Positions 61,242 to 62,632 of a stretch of 64,000 nt of DNA are shown here, one piece after another. Below the pieces are notes generated by a model. It did not search any database and had not been told where the DNA came from. It worked only from the letters and a program-made list of their open reading frames with translations. The position numbers and the translations under genes were made by a program. The stretch's first letter is position 1. Every line of letters starts with the position of its first letter. The DNA is from an uncultured virus (IMG/VR IMGVR_UViG_3300030090_006645) (Duplodnaviria; Heunggongvirae; Uroviricota; Caudoviricetes): the IMG/VR virus record IMGVR_UViG_3300030090_006645. One strand, given 5' to 3'.

Positions 61242-61270
61242 TTTTCTCTCCTTTTAATAAATAACAATTC

Positions 61271-61494
61271 GTAAGATGGCAGGATTCGAACCTGCAGTTT
61301 TTTAAGTACCAGTTTGTAGGCTAAAAACTTAAAAAAAGCCGTATATCGAATTCAGTACTCTTTTGAATTCGGGCTCAGGTGCTACCTTAACCTAATACCT
61401 TCTATCATTCCTAAGAATGACTCCAAAGGGTGTCTTCCAAGTAAAGTCGATTGGGTTTTATATTCCCATCGACAATGCATTCCACCACATCTTA
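61271..61494 (-). ncRNA. Expanded tRNA-like RNA (224 nt) with hairpin insertions in D-loop, anticodon arm and variable region
   Basis: Acceptor UAAGAUG/CAUCUUA; U8-G9; D-arm GUGGAAU...UGGAAGACAC; T-arm GCAGG-UUCGAAU-CCUGC; no 7-nt anticodon loop; no encoded CCA. Confidence 0.75.
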
Positions 61495-61501
61495 TGAACT
61501 G

Positions 61502-62632
61502 TTAACCTATTGGCACATCATCATCACCGATTTCAATATCATCAATACCGATGTTGTCTGTTTTATATGCCATTACTAATGTTTCACAAATTTGATTATA
61601 AATTCTTTCTTTCCTTCCAGGGTCTGAAAGAACTTTTTCCTCAAAATCTTTTGATAAAAACTTAATTTCTTCTCCAGTCTCTGTACATATATAAGTATAC
61701 CACGAACCGCCTTGTTTCAATAAATTATAGTCTTTCATTACCTGTAACCAACTTCCTGTATCATCTATTCCTGATTCGAAATAAATATTAAATTCAGCTG
61801 TACGTAATGGAGGTCCCATTCTATTTTTAACTACAACGGCTTTTGTTTTTATACCTATTGTTTGTTCTTTACCTTGAATCTTAGCTTTTATCTGACCTGC
61901 TGCTTTTAATCTTAATCTACAACTTGCATGGAATTGTATAGCTTTTCCACCACTTGTTGTCCAAGGGTCTCCAAACATAACTCCAAGTTTTTGTCGAAGT
62001 TGATTTGTAAAAATTAAAGCTACTCTTTCTCTACCAATTAGTTGAGTAATTTTTCTCATACCTTTTGATAATACAATTGCCTTTGATGTTGCCCAGCCTT
62101 CTTTATCGTAATCTTGTGCCTGTTCAACTTTTGTTGTTGCTGCTGCAACTGAATCTACTGCAATTGTTACTAGCCTATCTTTATCACTTTCTTTAACTTT
62201 TAGAATTATATTTTCAATTACTTCAAATATATCCTCTACAGTTTCAAGTTGTATATAAAGCATTTTAGAAATATCAATACCAATTGCTCTTAAGAACTCT
62301 TCGTTCATTGCATTTTCAGTATCAATATAAACAGCCAGTCCTCCTTTTTTCTGAGTATTTGCAAGTAAGTGAGCGGCTAATAGTGATTTACCAGAAGCTT
62401 CCATTCCAGTAATCTCTGTAATTCTACCTACAGGTAAACCACCATTGGGCCTATTAGAAATAGCAAGGTCAAGAATAGATGAACCAGTACTTATCCACTC
62501 TGTTAAATCAGTAGGTGTGTCTTCAGCACCATCTAAAAAATATGCTACCTTCATACCCTTAAACTGCTTATTAAGAGAATCTGCTAATACAGATGCTAAT
62601 TCGTCTCTATTTGTTTTCTTTGCCTTTGCCAT
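61502..62632 (-). CDS. recA: RecA recombinase
   Basis: ISTGS..LD, GGLPVGRITEITGMEASGKS, YIDTENA, DSVAA, NQLR, TTSGGKA, VVKNR. Confidence 0.95.
   Translation of the reverse strand: MAKAKKTNRDELASVLADSLNKQFKGMKVAYFLDGAEDTPTDLTEWISTGSSILDLAISNRPNGGLPVGRITEITGMEASGKSLLAAHLLANTQKKGGLAVYIDTENAMNEEFLRAIGIDISKMLYIQLETVEDIFEVIENIILKVKESDKDRLVTIAVDSVAAATTKVEQAQDYDKEGWATSKAIVLSKGMRKITQLIGRERVALIFTNQLRQKLGVMFGDPWTTSGGKAIQFHASCRLRLKAAGQIKAKIQGKEQTIGIKTKAVVVKNRMGPPLRTAEFNIYFESGIDDTGSWLQVMKDYNLLKQGGSWYTYICTETGEEIKFLSKDFEEKVLSDPGRKERIYNQICETLVMAYKTDNIGIDDIEIGDDDVPIG

Follow-up and report, generated by a model that had tools for sequence, protein, structure and literature searches.

Immediately downstream of the recA gene in a 64,000-nucleotide (nt) stretch of the uncultured virus record IMGVR_UViG_3300030090_006645 (hereafter the window), we found a conserved RNA element that retains the entire L-shaped architecture of a class II (Leu-type) transfer RNA (tRNA) and carries no anticodon loop. 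The RNA is 224 nt long from +1 to position 73, as a preliminary description of the window had stated, and is encoded at 61271-61494 on the minus strand, to which all element positions below refer. That description had interpreted the element as a tRNA mimic under selection, as opposed to a tRNA in decay, and the data support a conserved, selected tRNA-like RNA: all 36 distinct relatives share the same elbow and core residues, the stems covary, and each insertion into the tRNA frame is a conserved hairpin. The homologues that it proposed to look for downstream of recA were found, and covariation supported every helix that could be aligned. Because a 7-nt anticodon loop is present in no member, the RNA cannot read a codon. 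As far as we searched, it is a non-decoding tRNA-like RNA with an architecture not previously described, and three separate graft sites on a complete tRNA core are an unusual design for a phage RNA.

Relatives of the element and covariation

A scan of viral contigs for RecA relatives matched 600 stretches, and among the best 80, which were kept, 16 (L001-L015 and L023) carried a homologue of the element right after recA. A pattern scan of viral contigs returned 28 loci, and the corresponding scan of metagenomes returned 37, comprising 31 full members and 1 cut by the contig end; the other five were unrelated and were discarded (four odd tRNA-like sequences and one repeat). Apart from those of the recA-anchored scan, members were found by sequence patterns drawn from the family itself. 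Collapsing identical cores left 36 distinct sequences of 193-263 nt, which are the members counted throughout. All relatives lie directly 3' of recA in marine viral or metagenome contigs, and the RecA proteins of the members diverge down to 80% identity.

The 256-nt stretch of the window that contains the element folds with a z-score of -4.17, and none of 200 dinucleotide shuffles folded equally well. In an alignment of 22 sequences (46 pairs in nine helices), 95.7% of the positions were paired, compared with 81.0% in column shuffles, and sliding the 3' partners by 1-3 columns lowered pairing to 35-48%. Both sides had changed in 29 of the 46 pairs, and none of 500 shuffles reached any of five measures; in the 3' domain of all 36 sequences, 21 of 36 pairs had changed on both sides (matched by 0 of 500 shuffles), counts that are inflated by the relatedness of the sequences. 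The variety of pair types at single positions nevertheless argues for repeated independent change. Within the 3' domain, 40 of 134 alignment columns (127 model positions) are invariant, and the neighboring helices covary.

The tRNA frame

The 7-base-pair (bp) acceptor UAAGAUG/CAUCUUA with U8 and G9, the Leu-type D arm and the canonical T arm were all found as the preliminary description had drawn them (Table 1). G7-U8-G9, G13-A14-A15, G18-G19, A21, U48 and the T loop UUCGAAY are invariant in all 36 members, so that A15 and U48, which had been singled out as a matched couple, are both among the fixed residues. The D loop consists of GAAU, a 39-nt insert and UUGGAAGA, with G18 and G19 at 61438-61437. 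The features of a tRNA that the element possesses are therefore the 7-bp acceptor, the D and T arms, U8, A14, G18 and G19, U54, U55 and C56, and an R15-Y48 combination, and its GAAU...UGG.AGA sequence with a 3-bp D stem and A15/U48 is the pattern of bacterial class II tRNA-Leu. What it does not share with tRNAs is a 5-bp stem with a 7-nt anticodon loop (0/36), a length of ~70-95 nt, and recognition by tRNA finders.

The stems of the frame varied while remaining paired. The D stem covaries perfectly, being GCG/CGC in 19 members, GUG/CAC in 15 and AUG/CAU in 2 (two of its three pairs show a compensatory change in the 22-sequence alignment); six of the seven acceptor pairs changed on both sides in that alignment; and in the T stem, which is 100% paired, two of five pairs covary. 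At the first acceptor pair alone the types CG (8), AU (4), UA (4), GC (2) and UG (2) were encountered. A regular 7-bp acceptor, allowing one bulged base or a terminal mismatch, is present in 31 of the 36 members, usually with one unpaired base at -1/73.

Insertions in the D loop and at the anticodon position

The arm at the anticodon position had been described as a CCUUU/GAAGG stem extended by UCAUUC-UUAG-GAAUGA in place of a 7-nt loop, and this is what the sequence holds. A hairpin occupies this position in every member, ranging from 5 bp up to two helices with an internal loop, and its apical loops are small, mostly of 4 nt (UACG, UUCG, UAAG, CUUG). The D-loop hairpin at 61473-61446 was likewise borne out: inserted between position 16/17 and G18, it folds in 36 of 36 members, usually as two helices, outer and inner, on either side of an internal loop, the inner one with all three pairs covarying in 22 sequences. 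Most members keep ...AUAAAA or CAAAA in its apical loop, and an extra branch is present in four or five of them (L100, L258, L238 and, less clearly, L002/L241).

The acceptor end and the extension helix P0

Beyond the acceptor, the element of the window continues past a single A.C mismatch at -1/73 into the 9-bp helix UAACAGUUC/GAAUUGUUA, designated P0, and encodes no CCA, again in agreement with the preliminary description. The recA stop codon TAA (61504-61502) forms the first three bases of P0, and +1 of the element is eight bases 3' of that stop codon. A P0 duplex of at least 6 pairs is formed in 25 of the 36 members, whose arms differ in sequence yet stay complementary (AACAACA/UGUUGUU, AUAAUAAUA/UAUUAUUAU and AGUAAUUUG/CAAAUUACU, for example); the stop codon always lies within the 5' arm, and the 3' arm tracks its changes. 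The end of the RNA departs from that of a tRNA in that the discriminator at position 73 varies (19 U, 10 A, 6 C and 1 G), none of the 36 members encodes CCA at positions 74-76, and the ends are paired in P0 in the 25 members mentioned. The missing CCA is itself uninformative either way, because bona fide tRNAs of the related contigs L084 and L065 also lack an encoded CCA.

Hairpins and pseudoknots of the variable region

Three helices had been proposed for the variable region, which spans ~100 nt. Two of them stand, AGGU/ACCU as the inner part of hairpin H2 and CGAAUUCA/UGAAUUCG as hairpin H3, whereas the third, UUUUUUAAGU/ACUUAAAAAA, does not: no pair of this helix changed on both sides, and L023, the divergent member, disrupts two of its pairs. 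The same bases fit instead a hairpin, H4, and two pseudoknots, PK1 and PK2, and the data favor this arrangement over the UUUUUUAAGU/ACUUAAAAAA helix. The "five inserted hairpins" of the preliminary description are accordingly better counted as one D-loop hairpin, one capped arm, three variable-region hairpins and two pseudoknots.

H3 has, in the 34 distinct sequences compared, compensatory changes in 7 of 7 pairs and 100% of cells paired (6 of 6 pairs in the 22-sequence alignment), and H2 is the least regular helix, with 4 to 5 covarying pairs (4 of 5 in 22 sequences) and 73-85% of cells paired. In H4, 94% of cells are paired and two of four pairs are compensatory in the 22-sequence alignment; GGCU/AGCC is replaced by AGGU/ACCU in five sequences and, as read by eye, by GGUU/AACC in L023. 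PK1 joins the H3 loop to the strand that precedes the T stem and is 100% paired in the 34 distinct sequences, four of its six pairs having changed on both sides (variants include GAGCGC/GUGCUU, GAGUGC/GCACUU, GACUAU/AUAGUU and AAGCGC/GUGCUU). PK2, which starts in the H4 loop, is also 100% paired and shows one compensatory change, in L023 (AGUGUUU/AAACACU). The bridging strand that supplies both 3' halves adjoins the T stem, and its last base, U61296, doubles as U48. Only one base separates these 3' halves, so stacking of PK1 and PK2 on each other is possible.

Together, H4 and PK2 have the layout of an H-type pseudoknot (S1-L1-S2-S1'-L3-S2'), 94-100% paired with the single compensatory change in PK2. 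A U-tract in the H4 loop (61336-61331) precedes the 5' strand of PK2, and this run of 5-7 U residues faces five U-A pairs. In several known pseudoknots, such as those of SAM-II/SAM-V, preQ1-II and telomerase RNA, a U-rich L1 opposite U-A pairs forms U.A-U triples in the major groove, and by analogy the U-tract could lie in the groove of the PK2 helix as a U.A-U triplex. Inspection by eye gave no support for a kissing interaction between the A-rich D-loop hairpin and the U-tract or for a partner of the H2 loop, and a naive all-against-all column scan for extra tertiary pairs returned only noise from constant columns that permit G-U pairing.

Searches for known RNA families and distribution of the knotted domain

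In keeping with the expectation that the element would belong to no described family, ARAGORN called no tRNA or transfer-messenger RNA (tmRNA) in the window, nor did its scan of 8 members yield a call at the element, and Rfam 15 gave nothing at gathering score in the window. Searched at E values up to 10, the Rfam tRNA model RF00005 matched only the T arm of the element (14.9 bits against a gathering score of 29), and a MALAT1 match (19.9 bits, E 5.6) fell outside the element at chance level. The scan of 14 members yielded only a 17-nt T-arm fragment of the Rfam tmRNA model (14.3 bits against a gathering score of 47), and apart from T-arm fragments all matches at these permissive E values were at chance level. 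The YrlA model left the element unmatched at E up to 10 in the window, as it did in the 14 members also scanned, and no TROVE domain was found in the 68 open reading frames (ORFs) of the window that were scanned. Rfam riboswitch models were unmatched at E up to 10 in the window and up to 5 in the 14 members. tRNA finders and Rfam thus miss such RNAs entirely. Full-text literature searches found no description of this RNA; a large survey lists structured-RNA candidates of phages (10,006, there called csRNAs; PMC10690425), and the recA-linked RNA may or may not be among them.

The knotted domain appears confined to this family. All 21 matches to a pattern of this domain were in contigs carrying the element, and at the level of sequence patterns the tRNA frame was the only setting in which it was found. 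R1, a covariance model built on the 3' domain, had the element as its only significant match in the window (122 bits; the next match scored 12.7 bits, E 0.93) and gave nothing below E 0.3 in 66 other loci (64 recA loci together with L082 and L084), so the differing post-recA sequences of other clades are not detectable homologues. A loose two-anchor pattern returned at least 119 loci, mostly ordinary tandem tRNAs, with no new member among them, and the family pattern had no match in 185,579 bacterial and archaeal genomes.

A Leu-like RNA in a distantly related phage

A second anticodon-less tRNA-Leu-like RNA, 112 nt long, was found at 600-711 on the minus strand of both L084 and L082, within a phage tRNA cluster, and in these 2 viral contigs only. 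These RNAs scored 37.5 and 33.9 bits, respectively, on the Rfam tRNA model and were not called by ARAGORN; 47-49 nt (49 in L084) replace the anticodon arm. The L084 RNA has an uninterrupted D arm, GCG-GAAUUGGUAGA-CGC, with the same GAAU..UGG.AGA pattern as the element; unlike the element, it has a normal D loop, a normal variable hairpin and no pseudoknot domain. No difference separates the element from the L084/L082 RNAs in the 7-nt 5' strand of the acceptor or in 27 nt covering the T arm and the 3' strand of the acceptor, although the L084 phage is only distantly related (its RecA-like ORF is 38% identical) and the acceptor stems of other family members differ from that of the window. A 24-mer from the T arm and acceptor of the window had no match in bacterial genome contigs. 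The shared arms may have been exchanged between co-infecting phages or may derive from a common tRNA-Leu source. The tRNA cluster of L084 also contains partial tmRNA-like matches below threshold at 989-1224 and 757-833 on the minus strand (33.7 and 21.1 bits; gathering score, 47), as well as an odd tRNA-His call of 88 nt whose variable region is long.

Transcription signals around the element

No promoter-like or terminator-like site was found on the coding strand from recA to the next gene, no Bacteroidota-type TAnnTTTG motif was seen by eye near the element, and no Rho-independent terminator (a G+C-rich hairpin followed by a U-run) was found at the element on the minus strand. From the lack of such sites between the two genes we infer that the element is co-transcribed with recA. 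On the opposite (plus) strand, the complements of the T arm and of the A-tract form a terminator-like hairpin with a T-run at 61279-61295, which is probably a by-product, given that every gene is encoded on the minus strand.

In relatives without the element, either the exonuclease gene follows recA directly or a gap of 90-400 nt intervenes that often holds a strong hairpin with a U-run; a terminator tool called such a structure after recA in L047 and L037. Because relatives without the element often have a terminator there, the element appears to take the place of that terminator. Other conserved-looking sequences occur after recA among relatives without the element: a CCAAGGG motif stands right after the recA stop in L019-L025, and folded stretches of 100-150 nt lie ahead of the terminator after recA in L027, L041 and L042. 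The post-recA gaps of all these loci matched no Rfam family and not the R1 model.

Proposed function and alternative explanations

Our preferred reading, to which we assign a probability of roughly 40%, is that host ribonuclease (RNase) P and RNase Z excise the RNA, punctuating the recA messenger RNA (mRNA), and that the knotted domain of the resulting stable, tRNA-scaffolded RNA binds a partner. Host tRNA-maturation enzymes would treat the element as a pre-tRNA, recognizing its acceptor/T-arm stack and elbow, with RNase P cleaving at +1 and RNase Z or another 3' nuclease cleaving beyond position 73. Such cleavage would place a 3' end on the recA message at the point where relatives often have a terminator, would leave the downstream message starting immediately ahead of its ribosome-binding site, and would set free a stable RNA of some 190-260 nt, in which the tRNA frame would serve as a stabilizing chassis while the knotted domain, the possible triplex, the conserved loops and the A-rich hairpin would bind a protein, an RNA or a small molecule. 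Among the roles that the preliminary description had listed, that of an RNase P/Z processing signal appears to fit best: the element is a non-decoding tRNA-like fold at a gene boundary, located 8 nt past the recA stop and 8 nt before the next ribosome-binding site. The invariance of so many columns of the 3' domain, while nearby stems covary, leads us to think that the released RNA would have a task of its own. Two other listed roles are unlikely, a decoy for anticodon nucleases because no member has a 7-nt anticodon loop, and synthetase binding because the discriminator varies and most members hold their ends in the extension helix.

Several points weigh against excision followed by binding. 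Each processing step is an inference from the sequence, and pairing of leader with trailer in P0 would hinder both RNase P and RNase Z and suggests that the ends need not be free. A mere processing signal would need neither the D arm nor the knotted domain. PK2, and the choice against the UUUUUUAAGU/ACUUAAAAAA helix, rest largely on one divergent sequence, L023. The acceptors of L004, L106, L005 and L102 consist of 3 bp next to the T stem, a bulge of 3-4 nt and an 11-bp helix, and that of L268 pairs poorly; given these irregular acceptors, a strict 12-bp acceptor/T ruler is not universal in the family. As for the exchange with a terminator, our own script found a strong hairpin with a U-run (free energy, dG, of -15.7 or lower) in 13 of 31 gaps of at least 60 nt, a rough count only, as the script is permissive and also flags internal sites in 20 of the 36 members, and the terminator of L029 was missed by the tool scan.

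A more elaborate form of the same idea, for which we would claim only a low probability, is that the element is a natural "tRNA scaffold": excised from the recA message, it would capture a host protein or metabolite during infection in the manner of an aptamer, with a double pseudoknot containing a U.A-U triplex and with the A-rich hairpin, and its excision would replace a terminator.

Alternatively, the element may stay on the recA mRNA, unexcised, as a cis-acting element of the 3' untranslated region (UTR) that blocks 3'-to-5' exonucleases or couples termination of recA translation to the fold; a structure closed by the stop-codon helix would then replace the terminator hairpin of the relatives. 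The fold occupies the position of that hairpin, the trailer is joined to the stop-codon region by P0 in 25 of the 36 members, the link to recA is kept while the downstream gene differs among members (as judged by eye), and the U/A-rich pseudoknot is of the triplex-capable kind. We nonetheless regard this explanation as rather unlikely, since P0 is missing in 11 of the 36 members, a stabilizer leaves the invariant tRNA elbow residues unexplained, and in the lack of a U-run terminator no transcript end is predicted past the element, so that the uncut fold would be internal to the message and not at its 3' end.

Somewhat less probable is a mimic or decoy that titrates an elbow- or acceptor-reading factor during infection, candidate targets being a host tRNA-modifying or tRNA-targeting enzyme, a defense nuclease, a nucleotidyltransferase or the ribosome. 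An elbow and core invariant in 36 of 36 members next to a dispensable anticodon arm is what such a decoy would show; moreover, five large contigs that carry the element (50-116 kb) contain no tRNA gene by RF00005, the element being the only tRNA-shaped RNA found there, and the 112-nt Leu-like tRNA of the distantly related phage L084 likewise has no anticodon, its acceptor and T arms being identical to those of the window. However, the want of an anticodon loop excludes anticodon nucleases as targets, the varying discriminator and paired ends make readers of the acceptor end unlikely, the conserved knotted domain would go unexplained, and Pfam searches of the 68 window ORFs found no linked partner gene for RNA repair, Ro/TROVE or tRNA processing.

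We consider it improbable that the element is a riboswitch-like sensor, in which the U-tract pseudoknot would bind a ligand or protein effector and alter downstream expression or the stability of recA mRNA. An S1-L1-S2 topology in which a U-rich L1 of 7-9 nt faces five U-A pairs is reminiscent of the triplex pseudoknots of the SAM-II/SAM-V and preQ1-II riboswitches, and the loops and junctions are near-invariant. Against a sensor, the riboswitch models of Rfam were unmatched within the limits given above, the downstream ribosome-binding site does not pair with the element, the downstream genes vary among members, and there is no conserved terminator/antiterminator alternative, an AGCC/GGCU option being seen by eye in the window only.

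The view that the element is a decayed or interrupted tRNA-Leu gene, a functionless pseudogene or intron-bearing remnant, could appeal to the Leu-type D arm and to genuine tRNA genes nearby (tRNA-Ala near recA in L039 and L040, tRNA-Glu ~230 nt downstream in L023), yet it is already contradicted by compensatory changes in all helices, the inserted ones included, and by loops that stay invariant in 36 distinct sequences although the accompanying RecA proteins are as little as 80% identical; the inserts, moreover, fall well below the size of group I introns, Rfam gave no intron match, and we give this view almost no weight. Two further candidates were considered and rejected: readthrough of the recA stop codon, as in-frame stops follow right after recA in several members, and mimicry aimed at leucyl-tRNA synthetase, as the discriminator at position 73 varies.

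If tRNA enzymes do excise the RNA, this would represent mRNA processing of the tRNA-punctuation type in a phage of an inferred Bacteroidota host, and if the RNA binds a host factor, it would constitute a new kind of phage-host interface. With 36 natural variants and clear covariation, the family is ready for structural and biochemical work.

Genomic context

The element and its surroundings are listed in Table 1. All genes of the window are carried on the minus strand, the GC content is ~30%, and the AAGGAG ribosome-binding site of the next gene lies at 61253-61248, 8 nt past P0. The closest cultured RecA is that of Microcystis phage Mel-JY01, and its identity of 55.5% indicates a phage with no cultured relative. 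A DNA search of phage GenBank records left the element unmatched; the nearest record, G001, is a 37.9-kb fragment with an element identical to that of the window. No RNA-repair, Ro/TROVE or tRNA-processing genes were identified by Pfam among the 68 window ORFs scanned.

Table 1. Features of the element and of the surrounding window.
Feature	Position	Strand	Description	Basis
P0 5' arm (leader)	61496-61504	minus	UAACAGUUC; pairs with 61262-61270; A61495 is the unpaired -1 base	
Acceptor 5' strand	61488-61494	minus	UAAGAUG (positions 1-7), then U8 (61487) and G9 (61486)	
D arm	61430-61485	minus	Stem GUG (61485-61483)/CAC (61432-61430)	
D-loop hairpin	61446-61473	minus	GUCGAU-GGG/CCC-A-AUCGAC; A-rich apical loop AAUAUAAAA	
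Arm at anticodon-arm position	61398-61429	minus	CCUUU/GAAGG with UCAUUC-UUAG-GAAUGA; no 7-nt loop, no anticodon	
H2	61372-61392	minus	GGUU-A-AGGU-AGC-ACCU-G-AGCC; conserved U-A-R-Y loop motif	
H3	61347-61371	minus	CGAAUUCA/UGAAUUCG; 9-nt loop AAAGAGUAC (61363-61355)	
PK1 5' strand	61355-61360	minus	GAGUAC in H3 loop; pairs with GUACUU (61309-61304)	
H4	61319-61340	minus	Stem GGCU (61340-61337)/AGCC (61322-61319); loop UUUUUUAAGUUUUU (61336-61323)	
PK2 5' strand	61323-61329	minus	AGUUUUU in H4 loop; pairs with AAAAACU (61302-61296)	
3' bridging strand	61296-61309	minus	GUACUU-A-AAAAACU; 3' halves of PK1 (61309-61304) and PK2 (61302-61296)	
T arm	61279-61295	minus	GCAGG-UUCGAAU-CCUGC	Sequence
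Acceptor 3' strand and position 73	61271-61278	minus	CAUCUUA (61278-61272); position 73 is C61271	
P0 3' arm (trailer)	61262-61270	minus	GAAUUGUUA	Sequence
recA	61502-62632	minus	Pfam RecA, 1.2e-59	Pfam, ORF list, sequence
Next gene	61047-61254	minus	64 amino acids; no Pfam family	ORF list, Pfam
Ribosomal protein S21	59783-60154	minus	Ribosomal protein gene	
Type IX sorting-domain protein	15495-18737	minus	Type IX secretion sorting domain	
DNA replication and recombination genes			gp32-like protein, RecA, 5'-3' exonuclease, DnaB-like helicase, DNA polymerase III alpha	
Nucleotide-metabolism genes			Ribonucleotide reductase, ThyX	
Chaperone genes			Hsp20, GroEL/GroES	
Surface genes			Large sugar-nucleotide cluster, type IX sorting-domain protein	

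The type IX secretion sorting domain of one window protein points to a Bacteroidota bacterium as the probable host. Despite that inferred host, strong AAGGAG sites stand at phage gene starts (e.g., 61248-61253), a site rarely used by Bacteroidota, and the combination of an S21 gene with AAGGAG sites would fit the idea that the phage S21 retunes host ribosomes. Elsewhere on the minus strand of the window lie GroEL and GroES (43106-45025), a DnaE-type DNA polymerase III alpha subunit (46599-49949) and Hsp20 (59268-59702), and an ~18-kb cluster for sugar-nucleotide and glycan synthesis (23438-41045) encodes an NDP-hexose 2,3-dehydratase, a GDP-mannose dehydratase, a C-methyltransferase, a sulfotransferase, an aminotransferase and glycosyltransferases.

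In related contigs, tRNA-Ala genes lie in the recA-exonuclease gap of L039 (3250-3324) and L040 (2751-2825), a tRNA-Glu lies ~230 nt past the element in L023 (4077-4149), and a tRNA gene is found near recA in L065 (2398-2471), the tRNA-Ala sites being either the recA-exonuclease gap or upstream of recA. In this phage group, tRNA genes thus seem to recur in the neighborhood of recA. The HDV-like ribozyme model HDV-F-prausnitzii gave weak matches ~220-230 nt downstream of the element in L109 (673-724, plus strand, 25.9 bits) and L086 (93-144, minus strand, 23.4 bits), compared with a gathering score of 44, making a self-cleaving ribozyme in the element's transcript possible in these two contigs. 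The RecA-like ORF of L293 (G007), which starts at 13245 on the plus strand and spans 676 amino acids, matches window RecA residues 8-210 and 546-640 and suggests an inserted element such as an intein.

Comparison with known systems

Non-decoding look-alikes of tRNA are known from plant viruses, mitochondria, MALAT1, tmRNA and the Y RNAs. In its presumed action the element comes closest to the t-elements and the mascRNA/MALAT1 arrangement, and in design to tmRNA, YrlA and engineered tRNA scaffolds, yet it belongs to none of these groups. Phages T4 (species 1 RNA) and T5 produce stable, non-decoding, tRNA-shaped RNAs of unknown function within their tRNA clusters; unlike these, the element is tied to the 3' end of recA and occurs in contigs in which no tRNA gene was found. 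tmRNA and YrlA resemble it more closely in that they are non-decoding, reuse the acceptor/T-arm elbow, and add pseudoknots or helices. YrlA, however, is circularly permuted relative to a tRNA and tmRNA has no D stem, whereas the element is collinear with a tRNA and has a D stem; unlike tmRNA, it also has no tag reading frame, as judged from the sequence, and ARAGORN called none.

At the 3' end of MALAT1 and MEN-beta, a triple helix precedes a tRNA-like RNase P substrate, known as mascRNA in MALAT1, and this upstream triple helix protects the long RNA. Both that system and the element combine a tRNA-like fold with a U-rich/A-rich part able to form U.A-U triples; in the element, unlike in MALAT1, the U/A pseudoknot is inside the tRNA-like RNA, between the D and T arms.

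The t-elements of plant mitochondria act as tRNA-like RNase P/Z signals at mRNA ends, according to Forner et al. (2007, PMC1920247). They and the element are both non-decoding tRNA-like folds in a protein-coding transcript next to a gene end, and the presumed action, tRNA enzymes making mRNA ends, would be alike if our reading of the element is right. The t-elements are small, poorly conserved remnants; the element, by contrast, has a full tertiary core, a length of 193-263 nt and a conserved double-pseudoknot domain.

The tRNA scaffolds engineered by Ponchon and Dardel for recombinant RNA (PMC3753655) offer the remaining parallel. They too use a tRNA frame to carry a structured RNA and lend it stability and processing, and the element may serve the same purpose. 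Engineered scaffolds place their cargo in the anticodon arm, whereas the conserved cargo of the element is at the variable-arm position and in the D loop. If the RNA is indeed excised, it would be a natural precedent for the tRNA scaffolds of RNA engineering.

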